Assembly: GCA_018646625.1 (NCBI GenBank)
Contig: JABGUJ010000003.1
Location: 228,509 to 292,508, forward strand
Direction of reading: 5' to 3'
Length of the DNA stretch: 64,000 bases
Source of the DNA: Candidatus Woesearchaeota archaeon
GTDB taxonomy: Archaea > Nanobdellota > Nanobdellia > Woesearchaeales > JABGUJ01
The notes under the pieces were generated by a model. It was given only the letters and a program-made list of their open reading frames with translations, ran no database searches and had not been told where the DNA came from. Positions 38,829 to 50,167 of the stretch are shown piece after piece (positions within the stretch are counted from its first letter, which is position 1; every line of letters begins with the position of its first letter). The position numbers and the translations under genes were made by a program.

Positions 38829-40754
38829 TTAACGTCTCTCCATAATTTCTGCACAGACTTCAGAAATAAACTTATCAACCTTCTTCTCGCCATGAACTTC
38901 ATTATCACGAGTTCGAACATTAACAGTTCCATTCTCAGACTCAGAGTCTCCCACAACTAAAATATAATTAACATATTCAAGTTGCGCTTCACGAACCTTT
39001 TTCTTAATTGATTCAGAACGTGAATCTAACTCCACCCTGATACCTTGCTCAAACATTTGTTTCTTAATCTTCTCACAATACTCAGCATGTCTGTCAGCAA
39101 TAGGCAAGATCTTAACCTGCACAGGAGATAACCAAAGCGGGAACTTACCAGCATATTGCTCAATAAGTAAAGCCATAGTTCTCTCAAGACAACCAATGGA
39201 AGCTCTATGAATCACCATAGGTCTATGCTTCTTGCCATCTTCACCTTCGTAAGTCATGTCAAACCTTTCAGGCAACGCAAAATCAATTTGCACAGTAAAC
39301 AAAGTATCTTCCTTACCATACACATTTTTCATTTGCACGTCTAACTTAGGACCATAGAATGCCGCCTCATTATCCGCTTCAACGTATTCAATATCCAACT
39401 CATCAACGATCTTTTTCATGATCTTTTGAGAGTTAGCCCACGCTTCAGGATTATCAATATACTTTCCAGAACCATCAGTTGAACATTTAGAAAATCTATA
39501 CCAATAGCCAGTTAGTCCTAACACAGACATAAGATATTGTATCAACTCAACAACCCTTTTGAACTCATTTTCTAATTGATCAGGTCTACAAATAATATGC
39601 GCATCAGCCAAAGTAAATTGACGAACTCTAATAAGACCATGAAGTTCTCCCGACTGTTCGTTTCTAAACAAATCAGCAACTTCCGCATATCTCAGAGGAA
39701 GATCTCTATAACTCCTCATCTTAGATTTGTAAATCATAAACTGATGCGGACAAGTCATAGGTCTAAGACAAAACTCTTCTCCTCCCGATTCAAAAACAAA
39801 CATACTATCTTTGTAATGATCATAATGACCAGACATTTTGTACAAGTCACTCTTAGCCATCACAGGAGTTTCAGTAGGTATGTATCCACGTTTGTACTCT
39901 TCATCTTCAATAAACCTACGAAGAATTCTCTTAATAGTTGCACCTTTAGGACATAAAAGAGGCAAACCTTTTCCAATAACTTCACTAGTCGTAAAAAGAT
40001 CCAACTTCCTACCTAATTTATTGTGATCTCGCTTCTCAGCTTCTTCACGAAGACGAACATATTCCTTCAATTCCTTCTTATCAGGAAATGCCACACCATA
40101 AATTCTCTGCAATTGTTTATTCTTAGAATCACCACGCCAATATGCGCCAGCAATTTTAGTTAGTTTAAACGCCTTAATCATTCCAGTATTAGGAACATGT
40201 GGTCCTTTGCAAAGATTGTCATACTCTCCTTGAGAATACATGCTCACCACATCTTCAGGAATGGCATTAGCCAACTCTATTTTGTATGGATCGTTTTTGT
40301 AAAACTCAAGAGCTTCCGCTTTAGGAATATCTTTTTGAGTAATCTTAAGTTTTTCCTTAACAATCTTCTTCATTTCTTCTTCAATCTTCACAAGATCATC
40401 AGGACGCAAAGGTTCTTCAAGATCATAATCTTGATAAAAACCATCCGTCACTGCAACACCAACACCTAAGCCAATGTTTTGCCCCTTAAACAATCTCAAA
40501 ATAGCTTGAGTCATCAAATGAGAAGCACTGTGCCAGAAAATATCTTTTCCCTCTTCATCTTTAAATGTTAGAATTTTTAATTCACAATCAGTATTTAACG
40601 TAGTAGAAATATCTACCGCCTTACCATTAACCATTGCAGCAACCGAATTTCTTGCAAGACCTTCCGATATACTCATAGCTACATCGAAAGCCGAAACACC
40701 TTTATCAAACTCCGAAACTGAACCGTCCGGAAAAGTTATTTTCACTTTAGTCAT
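38829..40754 (-). CDS. thrS: Threonyl-tRNA synthetase, bacterial-type (TGS and editing domains)
   Basis: ITFPDGS TGS, WHSASH, LCKGPH, AYWRGD, RDHNKLG, PMTCP, GLIRVRQF, AFYGPKLD; SD GGTGA favours ATG 40754 (40760 possible). Confidence 0.97.
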   Translation of the reverse strand: MTKVKITFPDGSVSEFDKGVSAFDVAMSISEGLARNSVAAMVNGKAVDISTTLNTDCELKILTFKDEEGKDIFWHSASHLMTQAILRLFKGQNIGLGVGVAVTDGFYQDYDLEEPLRPDDLVKIEEEMKKIVKEKLKITQKDIPKAEALEFYKNDPYKIELANAIPEDVVSMYSQGEYDNLCKGPHVPNTGMIKAFKLTKIAGAYWRGDSKNKQLQRIYGVAFPDKKELKEYVRLREEAEKRDHNKLGRKLDLFTTSEVIGKGLPLLCPKGATIKRILRRFIEDEEYKRGYIPTETPVMAKSDLYKMSGHYDHYKDSMFVFESGGEEFCLRPMTCPHQFMIYKSKMRSYRDLPLRYAEVADLFRNEQSGELHGLIRVRQFTLADAHIICRPDQLENEFKRVVELIQYLMSVLGLTGYWYRFSKCSTDGSGKYIDNPEAWANSQKIMKKIVDELDIEYVEADNEAAFYGPKLDVQMKNVYGKEDTLFTVQIDFALPERFDMTYEGEDGKKHRPMVIHRASIGCLERTMALLIEQYAGKFPLWLSPVQVKILPIADRHAEYCEKIKKQMFEQGIRVELDSRSESIKKKVREAQLEYVNYILVVGDSESENGTVNVRTRDNEVHGEKKVDKFISEVCAEIMERR

Positions 40755-40790
40755 ATTCATTCACCTATATCTGCCGTCTAGAGGCCCTGT

Positions 40791-40806
40791 ATTTTTATAT
40801 CTTTCT
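40791..40806 (-). promoter_or_regulatory. thrS-proximal BRE/TATA-like promoter
   Basis: AGAAAGATATAAAAAT on - strand, about 30-45 nt upstream of the thrS start. Confidence 0.5.
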
Positions 40807-40851
40807 AGTTAGAAACAATTAGAACATATAGAAAATGAGGGGCCTATGGGC

Positions 40852-40926
40852 CTAACATGTGGTTGTAGTGGTAGAACTATACAAAGGAAGATCAAATATA
40901 ATCTCAAACAAATAGTCCAATACCAT
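40852..40926 (-). CDS. Putative Thr-rich leader peptide (uORF) of thrS, 24 aa: MVLDYLFEIIFDLPLYSSTTTTTC
   Basis: ATG at 40926, five tandem Thr codons ACC ACT ACA ACC ACA, TAG at 40852. TTTAAATA box at 40952-40959 has the same spacing to ATG as the TrmB gene at 13526. Confidence 0.6.
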   Translation of the reverse strand: MVLDYLFEIIFDLPLYSSTTTTTC

Positions 40927-40981
40927 CTTAGAATAGAATACGCATCTATAATATTTAAAGTTATTGAAAATAAAAAAAAGA

Positions 40982-41055
40982 GGCCACAAACGTTCGGCAG
41001 ATCCCTTGACAATAAAAGGGGTGGTTTAAGTATCCTACCGAACGGTTAGGTGGCC
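40982..41055. other. GC-rich long stem-loop element (possible ncRNA or 3' structure)
   Basis: GGCCAC/GTGGCC, CGTTCGGCAG/CTACCGAACG and CCCTT/AAGGG nested pairings; U-tract follows on - strand. Confidence 0.45.
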
Positions 41056-41090
41056 CACAGGATGAGTGTAAAAAAACAAAAAAAATTGTT

Positions 41091-43286
41091 TTACGCGAGA
41101 CCTACCCATTTAAGGAATCTGTAAAACAATCCACGACTTTCTACACACTGACCTTCCACACACAAATTAGTTTCACACTCAAAACCATTTTGGCATTTCA
41201 TATCGCTACCTAATTGTTTCTCAAAAAGTCCAGTCATTGGCGCGCAATACTTTGGATCTCTTCCATCAACAATTCTAGTACCGAAAGGTATGCATCTGTC
41301 ATCCATAAAACAACCATTGCATTCCTTGATCTGAGGAACAACTTCTTCAACTGTTTCTTCAACAAGCATTGGTTTTATTTCAGCAGCATCTACTGCGTCA
41401 ATTAAGCATTGCTCATATGCATCATTAGTTGGTTTTGCTGCACCGTACTCAACTTTCTTTAGACAAGGGTCCAGATCAATTAGGAAAGATTTCAAGTCAA
41501 CTTTACAACTTGCAAAACACTGGATAACATCCTCGTCCGCGTCGCTATAAACTTCTTCCCAACCATCAACAATCAAATCTTCCATCACACTTTCACTAAA
41601 ATCACAGTCTTTCAAATCAAGACACTGGATAGCTTCAGGAATTTCTTTTTCGTCAACAGTTATAGGTTGAACAACTCTTCTCTCTCTCTGCTCAACATAA
41701 TCTCTTTGATACCTTTTATCTTGATAAGGTGTACTCAAAGATGTTGCGCAAGCATAGTCTGCATTGTTTTGTAAGTACTCAAACTTATTTGCGTTTGTGT
41801 TGATTTGACAAAGTCTATCCCCATCAGTACCAAAGTTTTTGTAAGGAGGAGCTCCAAAAATCCAACTAGTTGCAGCTTGAGCATTGCCTTTATTCACAAA
41901 ACCAACAAAACCAACAACTTCTCCAGGTTTAACTTTAACAGTTGCAACACCAGATCTATCAGTTTGGATTGTCTCTCTCAACCAACCTTTGTAATTACTA
42001 GGTTGGAATCTATCAACAACATACACGTTAACATATGCACCTACTAAGTTCTTAGACAAAGAATAGTCTTGGTGTTCTGGATAGTTGTTAACACCAACTT
42101 CGAACGATACAAAGGATCCCGGAATAGGAACCTCAACAGGCACCACTACAGGAACAACAGGTGTTTCCACAGCTTGTTCTTCTTTAACACAAGCACCGTA
42201 AGAACATCCTTCAGGACATTTATACCATTGCTTATGCACGTAAGGGTTATCTGTTGGACCACTACAATGTGTTTCAATTACATAAGATCCAGAATCTTTT
42301 CCAGTATCTCCAACATAATCACCACAACTATCTCTGTAATGACCATATACTCTCATTCCTTCACTCTCACCATTAGTGTAGCCAGAAGTAAAGTACTGAA
42401 TTCCACCATCGCTGTCTTTACAAACAGGAACTACATCTTCAACTTCAACATCTTCTTCAACAACTTGACTTGAAGTTTTACATGCACCATCTTCACATCC
42501 ATTTGGACAATAATAATCAGGCATTACATCCCAACCCGCATATCCAACAGAACATCTAAATTCAGCAACATGCGTTGCATCTCTACAGAAATCTTCAGCA
42601 ATTAAACCATTACCTAACTTAACTCTTCCAGCATGATAATAGCTCACACCACCATCAGTTTCTGTACAGTCATTAACAAACTCGTCATCTTCGTTTTCAC
42701 AGTAACACTGATCTAGATTCTTTTCACAATAAGCAGAACCCATTGCGTTACCTTCAAAAGAATTAGGACCACAAGCTCCCTTATCATAATCATAGTAGTT
42801 CTTACATGCGTAATCACAACTTGGATAATCACAAGTTCCTTGTATGCACTCTTTATGTGCTCCAAACTTATTACAGTCAGAATCTACATCGCAGCTGTAA
42901 TCTGTTTCAACAACTTCTTGCTTACATGCACCATCAGCACATTGATATCCTTCAGGACATTTTGCTTTTTTATGCTCATAAGCAAACTCAGCATCATCTT
43001 CCAAACAGACTAGCTCTTCAACATAGCCACCAGTTGAAAGTTTATTACCACTCTCACTCACGCAGTACTCAAAAACTGTTTGAGAACCAAAGTTAGGAGT
43101 GTATACATCTAATTTCCCCTTTTCAAATATATCATACCCACCATCAGAATCCTGACAGGTAGGCATTACATCAGTAGCAAAGACGGATATACTAAGCACC
43201 ATCAATACCACAAAAGCCAACATAATTTTTGACATTTTTTGTTTCATTCTTCTTAACCTCGCAAAATCAATATGATTTGTGTTCAT
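41091..43286 (-). CDS. Secreted Cys-rich repeat surface protein
   Basis: Signal peptide (true start probably later, MKQKMSK or MSKIML); three C-x-[DE]-[ST]-DGG...G modules ending in C..GAC; Cys-rich C-terminal domain. Confidence 0.8.
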   Translation of the reverse strand: MNTNHIDFARLRRMKQKMSKIMLAFVVLMVLSISVFATDVMPTCQDSDGGYDIFEKGKLDVYTPNFGSQTVFEYCVSESGNKLSTGGYVEELVCLEDDAEFAYEHKKAKCPEGYQCADGACKQEVVETDYSCDVDSDCNKFGAHKECIQGTCDYPSCDYACKNYYDYDKGACGPNSFEGNAMGSAYCEKNLDQCYCENEDDEFVNDCTETDGGVSYYHAGRVKLGNGLIAEDFCRDATHVAEFRCSVGYAGWDVMPDYYCPNGCEDGACKTSSQVVEEDVEVEDVVPVCKDSDGGIQYFTSGYTNGESEGMRVYGHYRDSCGDYVGDTGKDSGSYVIETHCSGPTDNPYVHKQWYKCPEGCSYGACVKEEQAVETPVVPVVVPVEVPIPGSFVSFEVGVNNYPEHQDYSLSKNLVGAYVNVYVVDRFQPSNYKGWLRETIQTDRSGVATVKVKPGEVVGFVGFVNKGNAQAATSWIFGAPPYKNFGTDGDRLCQINTNANKFEYLQNNADYACATSLSTPYQDKRYQRDYVEQRERRVVQPITVDEKEIPEAIQCLDLKDCDFSESVMEDLIVDGWEEVYSDADEDVIQCFASCKVDLKSFLIDLDPCLKKVEYGAAKPTNDAYEQCLIDAVDAAEIKPMLVEETVEEVVPQIKECNGCFMDDRCIPFGTRIVDGRDPKYCAPMTGLFEKQLGSDMKCQNGFECETNLCVEGQCVESRGLFYRFLKWVGLA

Positions 43287-43393: not shown

Positions 43394-44359
43394 CTAGTCT
43401 TTACCCAAGAACCAAGCTGTTAAAGCAACATCCCTTTGCTTACCGCGTGCCTTTATCTGTACAACGTTTCTTCGCTCTAAAGATTTCAAACATCTTGACA
43501 AACTAGTTCTAGGTATTCCAGTATTGTGTCTCAAAGACGCTTGAGTACTCTTATTTTCATTACACATCAAGAAATTAACTATCTCTTTTTCATTAGTGCC
43601 AAGAGTAGGTAATATATCATCACAGCGCCCTTTCTTCACTTTTTTAGGCTTCTTAACCTTTTCAACAGAATTTTTAGAAGATAAAAAATAATACATTACA
43701 CCTGCCGCAACAAGTAAAGCAATCAAAGCCACACCAAGCACATAACCTAAAGAGAACGTCTTGTCTTTACCCTTAACCTTCATTTCAAGCGCTATATTCA
43801 CACTTTCAAGATTCCCTTGCGTCACAGTAATCTCAGAATAACCCAAATAACCTTCACTAGAAGCATACACAACATATCCACCAACTGGTAGAATATCAAC
43901 TCTAAACGAACCAAAACTATCAGATTTGGTAGGAAGATCAAATTCTCCGCACACAGCACACTCAAACTTCAACTCAGCATCTGGCACAACATTATCTAAA
44001 TCATCTTTAACAAACCCAGACACAGATCCTACCTTTTCTAGATATAAAGCAGCAGGACTCACTGAATCTTCTGTAACAACAACACTATCTTCACCATAAT
44101 ACATCGCCCTACCATTATCCATGACCCTCAAAGAAACAAACCATTCACCTTCTGTAAAAGGATAGTCGAAAACCCCATTCTCTAAGAATGTAGTAAAACT
44201 CTTTTGTTCTCCAGATTGAGAATTAATAAGCGTAAAAGAAACCTGCACCCCACCTAAATGAACATTATCAGAAGCATCCTTTAATACAATAGAATGCGAC
44301 AACACAGAAAGAGGTAAAACCAGTGCGAAAAACAATAAGAAAAACAGATTGCGCCTCAT
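43394..44359 (-). CDS. Membrane-tethered wHTH protein with extracellular carboxypeptidase-regulatory-like beta domains (COG2512-like)
   Basis: Signal peptide, GSVSGFVKD...VPDA...SDSFGSF...LPVGGY domain, TM, then NEKEIVNFL...TQASLR..TGIPRTSLSRCLKSLERR. Confidence 0.78.
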   Translation of the reverse strand: MRRNLFFLLFFALVLPLSVLSHSIVLKDASDNVHLGGVQVSFTLINSQSGEQKSFTTFLENGVFDYPFTEGEWFVSLRVMDNGRAMYYGEDSVVVTEDSVSPAALYLEKVGSVSGFVKDDLDNVVPDAELKFECAVCGEFDLPTKSDSFGSFRVDILPVGGYVVYASSEGYLGYSEITVTQGNLESVNIALEMKVKGKDKTFSLGYVLGVALIALLVAAGVMYYFLSSKNSVEKVKKPKKVKKGRCDDILPTLGTNEKEIVNFLMCNENKSTQASLRHNTGIPRTSLSRCLKSLERRNVVQIKARGKQRDVALTAWFLGKD

Positions 44360-44457
44360 ATCATAAATTACCTTTGAGAGATATATAAACGTTTTCTTAG
44401 ATTCAATGCATAAACACATCAAAATCTTTAAATACTAACTAAACAGAAAAACTCAAC

Positions 44458-49147: not shown

Positions 49148-49269
49148 GTGGGGGTAGCAAAGTCTGGTCAAATGCGCAGGACTTAAGGCTATCTTTATGA
49201 GACACTTACCTCGTAAGTAAGATATCCTGTCTCTTAGTGAGTTCGTGGGTTCGAATCCCATCCCCCACA
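49148..49269 (+). tRNA. tRNA-Leu(UAA) with 36-nt intron (49188-49223) at canonical 37/38
   Basis: Acceptor GTGGGGG/CCCCCAC, anticodon stem CAGGA/TCCTG, TAA at 49184-49186, long variable arm, TTCGAAT T-loop. BHB: CTTA/TAAG helix with 3-nt bulges. CCA not encoded. Confidence 0.93.
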
Positions 49270-49356
49270 TTTTCTTTCATGTATAGCTAAGAAAAACGAA
49301 TTTGTATATACAGTATTTAGCAATTCTAATATATCAGTTCTAAAACAATTTTTGTC

Positions 49357-49827
49357 ATGGGGGAACAACCAAGCAGACAAGAACTAACAGATCTATTAGA
49401 TAGAATAGAAAGAAGACTCACTCCCGAATTAGATTCTAACGATTCAAGGATTATTAGAGTAAGAGCTACAGATTTTAGAATAAAAGATGGCGGATCATTA
49501 GAACGATGGTACGTTGTTCCGAACGGATTCTGGGGCAGAGTCGCCGATGAGTTTCAAAGAATTGTTACATTCGACGACAGTCCAGATCTTGGAATTGCAT
49601 ACAGTGCAAGAGATAATGGTAGATTAAACATAACTACGCGCATGAGATACAGAAACGGAAGAGCTTTAGTAAGAACAGCAAGAGCAGAATTAGTTAGAAC
49701 AAGGATGAACGGAGGAACTGCCTTCAAGCTATATGACTTATTCAATACAGATGATGTAATGGAACTACATCGAGAAGTTGATGCACTATGTCTCGAACCT
49801 TCACCAAGAAGACCCTATAATACTTAG
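49357..49827 (+). CDS. Hypothetical Arg-rich protein between tRNA genes
   Basis: 156-aa ORF with TATA-like box upstream; no recognised domain. Confidence 0.55.
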   Translation: MGEQPSRQELTDLLDRIERRLTPELDSNDSRIIRVRATDFRIKDGGSLERWYVVPNGFWGRVADEFQRIVTFDDSPDLGIAYSARDNGRLNITTRMRYRNGRALVRTARAELVRTRMNGGTAFKLYDLFNTDDVMELHREVDALCLEPSPRRPYNT

Positions 49828-49888
49828 TTTAATTCTATATAAGAAAACATTAATATATGGCTAGTTAGTTCTGGCAAGAAAACAAAGT

Positions 49889-49961
49889 GCCTCTGTGGCT
49901 TAGTGGCTATAGCGGCCGCCTAGTAAGCGGCAGGTCGGGAGTTCAAGTCTCCCCAGAGGCT
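49889..49961 (+). tRNA. tRNA-Thr(AGU)
   Basis: GCCTCTG/CAGAGGC acceptor, anticodon arm GCCGC-CTAGTAA-GCGGC (AGT at 49922-49924), GGGAG-TTCAAGT-CTCCC T arm, U73. Confidence 0.9.
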
Positions 49962-50095
49962 TTCTTATTATTACAAAATAACTAGATAATGCTCTAAAAA
50001 CAGCAAACTACATAAACAGTTAATAGTACACATATACAGTACAACTATATAAACAAAAAGCTTTAATAGCATACCTCAACAAAAACACATAAAAT

Positions 50096-50167
50096 GCTTC
50101 AGTGGCACAGTGGTAGCGCACTACCTTGGTAAGGTAGAGGTCGAGGGTTCAACTCCCTCCTGAAGCT
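50096..50167 (+). tRNA. tRNA-Thr(GGU)
   Basis: GCTTCAG/CTGAAGC acceptor, CTACC-TTGGTAA-GGTAG anticodon arm, GAGGG-TTCAACT-CCCTC T arm, U73. Confidence 0.95.

Follow-up and report, generated by a model that had tools for sequence, protein, structure and literature searches.

What is a short open reading frame that closes on a run of threonine codons doing just ahead of the threonyl-tRNA synthetase gene of an archaeon, the position in which a bacterium might carry a leader peptide? The locus lies within a 64,000-nucleotide stretch of DNA from a Candidatus Woesearchaeota archaeon, here called the window, and our preferred answer, to which we assign a probability of about 0.7, is that the element is a ribosome-mediated leader peptide that senses Thr-tRNA(Thr) and controls thrS in cis, or hom together with thrS in some relatives. 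Comparison of related loci establishes a conserved and to all appearances translated design, specificity for Thr codons and for thrS or hom as the downstream gene, a hairpin at the leader stop codon and target genes led by a Shine-Dalgarno (SD) motif. We infer beyond this that ribosome stalling raises expression and that the output is termination, not translation or RNA stability.

The leader and its parts in the window

The upstream open reading frame (uORF) consists of 24 codons plus stop on the minus strand (window 40926..40852, with ATG at 40926..40924 and TAG at 40854..40852), ends about 100 nt before thrS and has counterparts of similar design in relatives. It is preceded by a perfect match to the TATA box, TTTAAATA (P1, 40952..40959, minus strand), whose bases run from -33 (first) to -26 (last) relative to the A of the ATG, and because the box lies 26-33 nt before this ATG, its position implies a leaderless uORF transcript. 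The initial annotation had reported this box at 40959..40952 before an ATG at 40926 on the minus strand, and these coordinates hold; it had also described five Thr codons near a uORF stop some 100 nt before thrS, which is correct, one Cys codon standing between run and stop. The run itself, ACC ACT ACA ACC ACA, uses three synonyms (40858..40872, minus strand), and the single Cys codon between it and the TAG occupies 40855..40857 on the same strand.

A hairpin, GGCC-CATA-GGCC (40841..40852, minus strand; local fold -6.4 kcal/mol), overlaps the end of the uORF by one base, the G of the TAG also opening the stem, and it is followed on its 3' side by a pyrimidine- and U-rich tract (40822..40840, minus strand) that holds the YCAU motif of the family, here as CUCAU. 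The U-rich tract also pairs with a TATA-like stretch in a long, imperfect AU-rich hairpin closed by GGCCCC/GGGCC (40780..40845, minus strand), which is peculiar to the window genome and has no consensus counterpart among the members of the family. The TATA-like, AT-rich stretch (40791..40806, minus strand) is by its sequence alone a possible second, proximal thrS promoter (P2), and A-rich boxes resembling it are present in several members. Between this stretch and the gene lies GGGCCT (40787..40782, minus strand), near the thrS SD, AGGTGA (40761..40766, minus strand). The stop-codon hairpin, GGGCCT and the TATA-like box are all found where they had been placed at the outset; the alternative pairing then proposed between AGGCCC and GGGCCT, by comparison, is limited to this genome and unconserved. 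The accompanying caveat that the hairpins are weak was fair, since the fold of the 221-nt leader as a whole is unremarkable (z = -1.72; 12/200 shuffles equally good).

The downstream gene (38829..40760, minus strand) encodes a bacterial-type threonine--tRNA ligase (TIGR00418, E = 1e-201) with TGS, SAD, class II core and anticodon-binding domains, and a second, in-frame ATG at 40754 is likely the true thrS start, its spacing from the SD being better. Homoserine dehydrogenase is not detectable in the window genome.

Runs of at least five ACN codons are rare in this genome, with only 13 in all six frames of its 1.57 Mb, and by arithmetic the 200 nt preceding thrS would be expected to hold about 0.001 such runs on the strand of the gene, a figure uncorrected for the many looks taken in the initial annotation. 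The thrS uORF is the sole short ATG-initiated ORF of the genome that ends in a non-trivial homopolymer run before an aminoacyl-tRNA synthetase gene, and a search before the long ORFs of the same genome found no other cognate-codon leader. The leader and the upstream hairpin are unique in the genome, and a repeat or mobile element was rejected because both are single-copy. A search of sequencing runs for the window DNA matched 20 DNA runs and 0 RNA runs; four partial DNA runs gave identical low-depth contigs with 0 variants.

Thr-codon leaders in related genomes

The initial annotation had set a test in advance, whether uORFs with cognate codons occur upstream of thrS in related Woesearchaeota, and the result was positive. 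Across a sample of 140 of the 322 ThrRS-positive genomes of the same order (Woesearchaeota-type), runs of at least four ACN codons within 300 nt upstream of thrS were present in the sense orientation in 12/140 and in antisense in 0/140, and runs of at least five in the same regions were present in nine and zero, respectively; other mixed-composition codon boxes submitted to the same test gave 0 to 4. When we scored Thr-tail uORFs, defined as ATG-initiated uORFs 8 to 45 codons long in which Thr occupies at least three of the last seven positions, sense hits rose to 15/140 vs 2/140 in antisense, the runner-up residue in this tail screen being Leu with 8/140. Pattern and covariance-model searches together yield 21 confident members of the family plus 4 weaker ones, from 14 to 16 GTDB families. 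These statistics relate to one order whose members are not independent, and P values are therefore overstated; judged by comparison, the uORF is nonetheless a genuine, non-chance feature, and its recurrence in relatives is decisive.

The distribution is patchy, with the element in about 9 to 12% of the sampled same-order genomes and no copy ahead of thrS in G369 and G192 (loci L032 and L034), two of the three nearest relatives by ThrRS. A covariance model built with the window sequence excluded matched 10 of 151 genomes of the order at E <= 0.01, nine of the ten matches lying upstream of thrS or hom-thrS. Its best match in the window is the present element (40822..40869, 17.1 bits, E = 0.089), an atypical copy in which the hairpin is displaced 3' and the model score is low. 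Outside the order, the model matched 0/151 genomes of a class sample, and a pattern search of 314 other-order genomes returned 0 leaders among 23 places with a real stop. As a control, 43 other places with the arrangement of five ACN codons, one codon and a stop were collected from 401 class genomes; none adjoins a ThrRS gene, and most have no in-frame ATG. Among same-order genomes, six archaeal-type ThrRS genes of full length were also inspected, with a Thr uORF before none of them (0/6). Pattern scans of public genome contigs yielded five archaeal stretches, four of them duplicates of known loci, and one bacterial chance match, and those of metagenomes yielded two real matches and two chance matches, identical in sequence.

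The members share a start, a run and an end. An in-frame ATG is present in all, and in all the Thr run is followed by exactly one codon and then the stop. A perfect TTTAWATA lies at -26..-33 in the absence of an SD in 17/25 members, five of the 25 carry an SD instead with a more distant TATA box, and another two match the TATA box at 7 of 8 positions. Aligned Thr codons are invariant at positions 1 and 2 and vary at position 3, and the run bears the signature of coding selection. The leader ORFs measure 10 to 32 codons, and their N-terminal parts are unconserved between families. An antisense ORF on the plus strand (40846..41049) was considered and rejected because the third-position variation is synonymous on the minus strand only; the antisense of the ACN run would read as Cys, Gly, Ser and Arg codons intermingled.

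At the stop codon, a hairpin of -4 kcal/mol or better forms in 20/21 members vs 7.6% of 1970 control stop codons, and of the 13 members found by searches that did not use the hairpin as a criterion, 12 still show it. Pairing is preserved across at least six distinct stems, the loops are 3 to 5 nt long with the stop codon in or at the loop, and 34 to 168 nt separate the hairpin from the target start. Fixed-register covariation is modest (75.7% paired; 35/500 shuffles reach the score), as the stems occupy different registers, and per-sequence folding against control stop codons was used in its place. The tract that follows begins with YCAU and has a pyrimidine fraction of 0.73 in members vs 0.48 in controls; at least five T follow the hairpin in about 8/21 members (tails read by eye), most weakly before hom, so that a classical oligo-U terminator is not universal. 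RNAalifold applied to the spacer across members found neither consensus pairs nor an alternative structure; a mutually exclusive set of 1:2, 2:3 and 3:4 hairpins is absent, and the stop-codon hairpin alone is conserved.

The genes downstream include bacterial-type thrS, a TGS-less thrS (L169) and, on one metagenome contig, an archaeal-type ThrRS (L161; NF003068, E = 3e-141), and in two genomes (G069 and G139) the leader precedes homoserine dehydrogenase, with thrS next. An SD-like motif is found at 21/24 leader-bearing target genes vs 40/124 genes at loci that have no uORF leader, and a leaderless-type promoter at 0/24 vs 45/124. Because the target genes are SD-led, these counts suggest that they lie on a leadered transcript. 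In one member (L166), no TATA-like box is visible by eye in the 45-nt spacer; many members, the window included, have such a box between uORF and thrS, which could drive thrS independently of the leader. Recurrence, the start signals of the uORF and the SD-led target genes together support the Thr-codon leader interpretation with which the locus was originally annotated.

Proposed mechanism and competing explanations

We propose that transcription from P1 would produce an RNA whose 5' end lies at or beside the uORF AUG, and that a ribosome would translate the short ORF. Under a shortage of charged tRNA(Thr), this ribosome would dwell on the Thr run. Exactly one codon separates the run from the stop, and the hairpin's 5' arm begins within the final Thr codon or its successor, so that a ribosome held at any of the last few Thr positions would physically block the stop-codon hairpin. 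The hairpin and its pyrimidine- and U-rich tract may together constitute a termination signal or a pause-and-processing signal, and stalling would allow RNA polymerase to continue into the SD-led thrS. If Thr-tRNA is plentiful, the ribosome would get to the stop in the loop and depart, the hairpin would form and most P1 transcripts would end there. Since a ribosome at the stop also covers the hairpin, the model requires polymerase pausing or fast ribosome release.

The same Thr sensor may instead have a translational output, in which the YCAU tract pairs with the thrS SD and start codon and a stalled or terminating ribosome alters that pairing, in the manner of ermC and of the mycobacterial poly-Cys leaderless small ORFs. 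We regard this as unlikely. The pyrimidine bias of the tract (0.73 vs 0.48), the ability of UCAUU to pair with GGUGA and the SD-led target genes all fit it, as does L166, where the duplex is strong (-14.2 kcal/mol) and the 45-nt spacer is too short for a second promoter. The duplex of tract and target start slightly beats that of shuffled tracts (mean z = -0.51, 5/20 below -1, p = 0.016), and pairing of the tract with the uORF 5' end is weak as well (mean z = -0.62); neither of these weak pairings was counted as evidence. When the ribosome footprint was masked in partition-function folding of 20 members, however, SD accessibility did not change consistently, with means of 0.47 unmasked, 0.49 with a ribosome at the stop and 0.42 to 0.47 with one at the Thr codons and no significant contrast among them. 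There is also no consensus long-range helix, and a ribosome on the final Thr codons stops short of the tract.

Readings without a translating Thr sensor fare worse. The ORF could encode a micropeptide, for example the precursor of a Thr-rich modified peptide, that is merely linked to thrS and senses no Thr-tRNA; in its favor are the conservation of the ORF, its start signals and its probable expression from a separate short RNA, and its Thr/Cys-rich C-terminus resembles that of modified-peptide precursors, which can end in this manner. Yet length ranges from 10 to 32 codons, the N-terminal parts differ across families, what is conserved is codon identity and an RNA hairpin at the stop and not the peptide, no partner gene other than thrS or hom occurs, and no modifying enzyme is found nearby in the window, all of which makes such a peptide highly improbable. 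Slightly less credible still is an untranslated RNA or DNA element whose ACN repeats bind tRNA(Thr) in the manner of a T-box, ThrRS in the manner of an operator, or a DNA-binding regulator. ACN can base-pair with the anticodon of tRNA(Thr), and bacterial aminoacyl-tRNA synthetase genes are commonly under T-box or operator-mimicry control, but Rfam at gathering thresholds returned three tRNAs only from the whole window, and at E <= 10 returned four noise hits from 40600..41200, with no leader family and no T-box among them. An ATG with a leaderless promoter or SD and a stop one codon past the run are conserved, and since an untranslated element needs no ATG, start signal or in-frame stop, their conservation counts against it, as do loops of 3 to 5 nt that contain the stop codon, unlike the 7-nt anticodon loop, and the Cys/Gly/Ser/Arg mixture read from the antisense of the run. 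Finally, short ORFs are plentiful in AT-rich intergenic DNA and the whole-leader fold is ordinary, but a functionless chance ORF has a negligible likelihood, given that the design recurs across 14 to 16 families and is specific as to strand, codon box and amino acid, that covariance-model matches lie almost only before thrS or hom, and that control places in class genomes have none of the other family features.

Relation to known leader peptides

The leaders thrL (before thrABC), hisL and trpL of Enterobacteria are the classical cases of ribosome-mediated transcription attenuation, and the Thr-sensing leader favored here resembles them in having a short translated ORF upstream, cognate codons clustered near the leader stop and a hairpin whose 5' arm reaches back into the last part of the leader ORF. 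The likeness to thrL extends to the target in two archaeal genomes, where homoserine dehydrogenase lies downstream, a parallel to thrA, and to the diverged members L102 and L112, which mix Thr with Ile codons as thrL does. Unlike these leaders, the archaeal element has an archaeal host and promoter and a mostly leaderless transcript, possesses one conserved hairpin with the stop in its loop in place of 1:2, 2:3 and 3:4 alternatives, lacks a strong G+C-rich terminator stem, and has as its main target a synthetase and not a biosynthetic operon. Neither Rfam Thr_leader nor the other curated leader families match the archaeal leader.

Another comparison is with E. coli pyrBI, in which a ribosome translating the leader blocks the terminator hairpin and the signal is UTP-dependent polymerase pausing. 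Both have one hairpin over the leader end whose formation is decided, or in the archaeal case would be decided, by ribosome position with no antiterminator helix; the pyrBI leader, however, reads through its hairpin, whereas the archaeal leader stops within the loop and would respond to charged tRNA(Thr). Bacterial thrS is known to be controlled by T-box riboswitches and, in E. coli, by the thrS operator, which mimics tRNA; the Rfam searches matched neither in the archaeal leader. They share with the proposed leader a homeostatic control of the synthetase by the state of tRNA(Thr) or ThrRS, but they are untranslated structured RNAs, and the archaeal element shows marks of translation; the conserved hairpin is also not of the E. 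coli thrS operator type, with a 7-nt anticodon-like loop beside the ribosome-binding site.

A further parallel comes from the polycysteine leaderless small ORFs of mycobacteria, a bacterial 'Cys ribulon' that is demonstrated experimentally and has a translational output, a duplex sequestering the downstream ribosome-binding site (Canestrari et al., bioRxiv 10.1101/834739). The mycobacterial and archaeal systems have in common a leaderless, sensory first ORF in which cognate codons follow one another directly, more than one target locus for the amino acid, unlinked or in different arrangements, and a proposal that stalling increases downstream expression. They differ in that folding for sequestration of the ribosome-binding site gave no consistent signal in the archaeal family, whose conserved part is the stop-codon hairpin with the pyrimidine tract.

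The initial annotation knew of no established archaeal precedent, and a full-text literature search likewise found no report of an archaeal leader-peptide attenuator. Ribosome-mediated attenuation is a textbook bacterial mechanism, and archaea reportedly couple transcription and translation. We put at somewhat better than even the chance that this is the first archaeal amino-acid-sensing leader-peptide attenuator, of a minimal, mostly leaderless kind with one hairpin, the stop in its loop and the stalled ribosome as anti-terminator, forming a 'Thr ribulon' of two thrS types and hom across a DPANN order. If true, archaea would use the functional coupling of RNA polymerase to the pioneer ribosome for gene control, hairpin-assisted termination would be regulatable in archaea, and an essential synthetase would be tuned in genome-reduced, host-dependent DPANN archaea. 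The element is conserved and easily recoded, which makes the question of archaeal attenuation directly testable, and its design also offers an annotation rule for small regulatory ORFs overlooked by gene callers. Its single hairpin could also shed light on the way in which RNA structure and a trailing ribosome affect termination by archaeal RNA polymerase.

On termination in this genome more generally, a scan for promoters and terminators of bacterial type gave counts at the level of shuffled sequence, the models being bacterial and the host archaeal. Genome-wide, 28% of 3' flanks contain a T5 tract vs 18% of 5' flanks, and hairpins precede T5 tracts in 14% of cases vs 4% in shuffled sequence, which lends mild support only to a habit of terminating in this way.

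Recurrence of the Thr leader upstream of thrS

Re-reading of the minus strand bore out all coordinates of the initial annotation and confirmed the observation in the window. A TATA box, TTTAAATA (40959..40952, minus strand as are all features of this locus), stands 25 nt before the ATG (40926) of a 24-codon upstream ORF (uORF), the final six codons of which are five Thr codons in three synonyms (40872..40858) and one Cys codon. The last G of its TAG stop (40854..40852) is the first base of a GGCC-CATA-GGCC hairpin (40852..40841), directly followed by a U-rich tract containing CUCAU (40840..40822), and an AT-rich, TATA-like stretch (40806..40791) lies between this tract and the thrS Shine-Dalgarno (SD) motif AGGTGA (40766..40761). 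The gene encodes a bacterial-type threonine--tRNA ligase (TIGR00418, E = 1e-201), and its SD runs into an in-frame ATG (GGTGATG..., 40752-40766), with a second, properly spaced ATG two codons on; this second ATG, at 40754, is probably the start of thrS, the annotated one being two codons too early. Four loci carrying a Thr-codon leader (hereafter members) share this arrangement, namely the window, L130, L134 and L156.

The genome, G000 (1.57 Mb, 36% G+C, 96% complete), holds 13 runs of at least five ACN (Thr) codons in all six frames, from which about 0.001 such runs would be expected by arithmetic in the 200 nt preceding thrS on the strand of that gene. The leader DNA occurs only once in G000, and two screens of the sequence ahead of its long ORFs found no other short ATG-ORF with a homopolymer or residue-rich tail before an aminoacyl-tRNA synthetase gene. 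Folding of the 221-nt leader as a whole is not unusual (z = -1.72).

Among the matches listed, ThrRS searches returned no genome of the same family; the relatives belong to other families of the same order, with 41 to 61% ThrRS identity. Upstream regions of thrS were taken from 149 genomes among these matches (29 + 120 loci), with 4 listed genomes flagged as unpublished and the final 9 regions of the list omitted, and discarding nine loci with an unplaceable ThrRS N-terminus left 140 relatives for comparison; another 176 matches lie beyond those listed. The initial annotation had read the uORF as a leader peptide and proposed a search for Thr-run uORFs upstream of thrS in relatives; this comparison was positive and supports that interpretation, as runs of at least four ACN codons within 300 nt upstream of thrS occur in 12/140 on the sense strand and 0/140 on the antisense strand. 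Runs of at least five give 9/140 and 0/140, and ATG-uORFs of 8-45 codons with at least three Thr among the last seven residues give 15/140 and 2/140. Codon boxes of like composition (CA, AG, CT, GA, TC, TG, GT) yielded 0 to 4 runs of at least four, and Thr ranked first among residues in the uORF-tail screen, followed by Leu (8) and Lys (6).

Membership, targets and conserved features of the leader

An exact-match pattern scan of public genome and metagenome contigs added L156 (a genome contig, with thrS) and the metagenome contigs L158 and L161; its remaining matches were duplicates of known loci or chance. A covariance model of the leader (R1), built from 14 members with the window copy excluded, found the leader element as its top match in the 64-kb window (40822..40869, 17.1 bits, E = 0.089). 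Among 151 genomes sampled from the order, R1 matched 10 at E <= 0.01, and nine of these matches stand directly upstream of thrS or hom-thrS; the tenth is the C-terminus of a longer ORF. This order search contributed the members in genomes G147, G069, G087, G094 and G139. Two weaker matches, L102 (in G289) and L112 (in G236), are leaderless uORFs ending Ser-Thr-Ile-Thr-Thr, one residue and stop, and recall the enterobacterial thr leader in mixing Thr and Ile codons; a tract containing CAUUGG follows this diverged form. The tally stands at 21 confident and four weaker members (L040, L076, L102, L112), and those with genome handles represent 14 GTDB families, a number that rises to 16 when the weaker members are counted.

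The leader was found in no genome searched outside the order: R1 matched 0/151 genomes of a class sample, and a search of 401 class genomes (86 of the same order, 314 of other orders) for five ACN codons followed by any one codon and a stop gave 66 places, of which 47 had a true stop codon and four were known leaders. Of the other 43, none had a ThrRS-like ORF in the roughly 800 nt downstream, and an in-frame ATG was lacking from most. Among the genomes sampled the leader is patchy within the order; it is absent upstream of thrS in G369 and G192, two of the three closest ThrRS relatives among the matches listed, and no Thr uORF precedes six full-length archaeal-type ThrRS genes of same-order genomes.

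In most members the leader stands ahead of a bacterial-type thrS, in L169 of a thrS without the TGS domain, and in L161 of a gene whose best match is NF003068, the model for archaeal-type ThrRS (E = 3e-141; the score of 471.9 bits lies below the cut-off of 484, with the ORF taken from an internal ATG). In two genomes of different families, G069 and G139, it precedes a homoserine dehydrogenase of 419 or 422 residues (Homoserine_dh, NAD_binding_3 and ACT domains; E = 1e-62). There thrS comes next, after a gap of about 80 nt with its own TATA-like box and SD in G069, and of about 200 nt in G139. Homoserine dehydrogenase is not detectable in G000, and thrS is therefore the only visible target there. 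In L158, a full family-type leader is followed ~143 nt past its stop by a 94-residue ORF fragment that runs off the contig, has no Pfam family and is not recognisable as thrS; it may be a further Thr-leader target.

The ATG-ORFs that enclose the Thr runs of the members are all short, at 10 to 32 codons, and between run and stop each has a single codon, which specifies Ala, Cys, Val, Asn or Leu. Across four successive Thr codons of the member alignments, positions 1 and 2 are invariant and position 3 varies freely, a variation that is synonymous on the sense strand only. Of 25 uORFs, 17 lack an SD and have a perfect TTTAWATA that starts 26 to 33 nt upstream of the ATG, which is by its sequence a leaderless arrangement; in two further members the box matches at 7 of 8 positions with equal spacing, five have an SD with the TATA box farther upstream, and one is of no clear class. 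A hairpin at the uORF stop, folded over 26 nt, reaches -4 kcal/mol or lower in 20/21 members (mean -6.5), and in 12/13 of those found without using the hairpin; among 1970 control stop codons, drawn from thrS upstream regions that have no leader, the share is 7.6%. The 5' arm of the hairpin consists of the last Thr codon and the one after it, with the stop in the loop, and pairing is kept by at least six different stems; because the stem registers differ, a fixed-register pairing count understates its conservation. The tail that follows is rich in pyrimidines (fraction 0.73 vs 0.48 in controls) and in U (0.50 vs 0.32), and opens with YCAU in all listed members but L018 and L033. Beyond hairpin and tail, the spacer has neither alignable sequence nor a consensus structure across members.

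Start signals of thrS and proposed output of the leader

An SD-like motif at -16..-3 of the target gene is present at 21/24 leader-bearing and 40/124 leader-less loci (Fisher p = 5e-7, with kin not independent), and a leaderless-type promoter (TATA at -36..-26, no SD) at 0/24 and 45/124, respectively, which suggests that thrS at leader loci is built for translation from a leadered RNA. In the leader-less relatives (124 upstream regions, L003-L151), thrS TATA boxes peak at -35..-26 and the gene mostly looks leaderless, so that the translation-start mode of the same gene would appear to switch with the presence of the leader. The spacer of L166, the G069 locus, is only 45 nt long, with no TATA-like box visible by eye. 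An A-rich, TATA-like box stands 25 to 55 nt ahead of thrS in many members, including the window, and a second, leader-independent promoter is therefore likely in them.

The Thr run ends one codon short of the stop, and the last Thr codon already contributes to the hairpin 5' arm. Assuming that mRNA is protected for about 12 nt downstream of the A site, as is established for bacterial ribosomes, a ribosome that pauses while decoding one of the final few Thr codons would therefore cover that arm. We favor a model in which the hairpin and U/pyrimidine tract would act as a termination (or pause-and-cleavage) signal that a stalled ribosome would suppress, making the leader a one-hairpin attenuator. 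Mild support comes from G000, where T5 tracts follow genes more often than they precede them (28% vs 18%) and are preceded by hairpins more often than in shuffled sequence (14% vs 4%), and from a strong hairpin with T8 (40970-41055, minus strand) that is unique in G000, separates the upstream gene (41091..43286) from the leader promoter, and is probably the terminator of that gene; the 136-nt stretch 40960-41095 folds at -36.4 kcal/mol (z = -4.46, 0/200 shuffles as good). Counting against termination, T5 tracts occur in only about 8/21 member tails, a terminating ribosome would mask the hairpin too, and the members show no conserved antiterminator helix. Alternatively, the output could be translational, with the pyrimidine tract pairing with the target SD, to which duplex energies between tract and target start lend weak support (mean z = -0.51) but footprint-masked partition-function folding lends none. 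The Thr-sensing part of the leader is well supported by the comparative evidence, and output by termination, our preferred model, or by translation both stand as proposals.

Relation to known systems and neighboring genes

The leader would work like bacterial leader-peptide attenuation, and it lacks the classical three-helix switch of bacterial attenuators. Its leaderless form resembles the mycobacterial poly-Cys sensory sORFs (10.1101/834739). Transcription-translation coupling in archaea is recorded via French et al. 2007 in PMC7858274, and uORFs in Haloferax are noted in PMC7261190; passages of PMC2965389 and PMC4833913 hold no relevant archaeal content. The leader matches no curated leader RNA family in Rfam, and the full-text literature searched, which covers few subscription journals, yielded no report of archaeal leader-peptide attenuation or of a Thr uORF before thrS; an earlier report may exist elsewhere. 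Within the literature searched, a kind of control already known in bacteria has thus not previously been described in archaea.

The upstream neighbor (41091-43286, minus strand) encodes a Cys-rich protein of 731 residues that has no Pfam match and whose N-terminus is signal-like. The product of the next gene (43394-44422, minus strand) combines a CarboxypepD_reg-like domain and a membrane segment with a C-terminus that weakly matches TrmB/winged-helix. A tRNA cluster (49148-50167, plus strand) lies about 9 kb from thrS. It includes a 122-nt Rfam tRNA match (49148-49269, plus strand), absent from the ARAGORN calls and probably intron-bearing, and two tRNA-Thr genes called by ARAGORN, with anticodons AGT (49889-49961) and GGT (50096-50167); a tRNA-Thr with A34 would be unusual in archaea.
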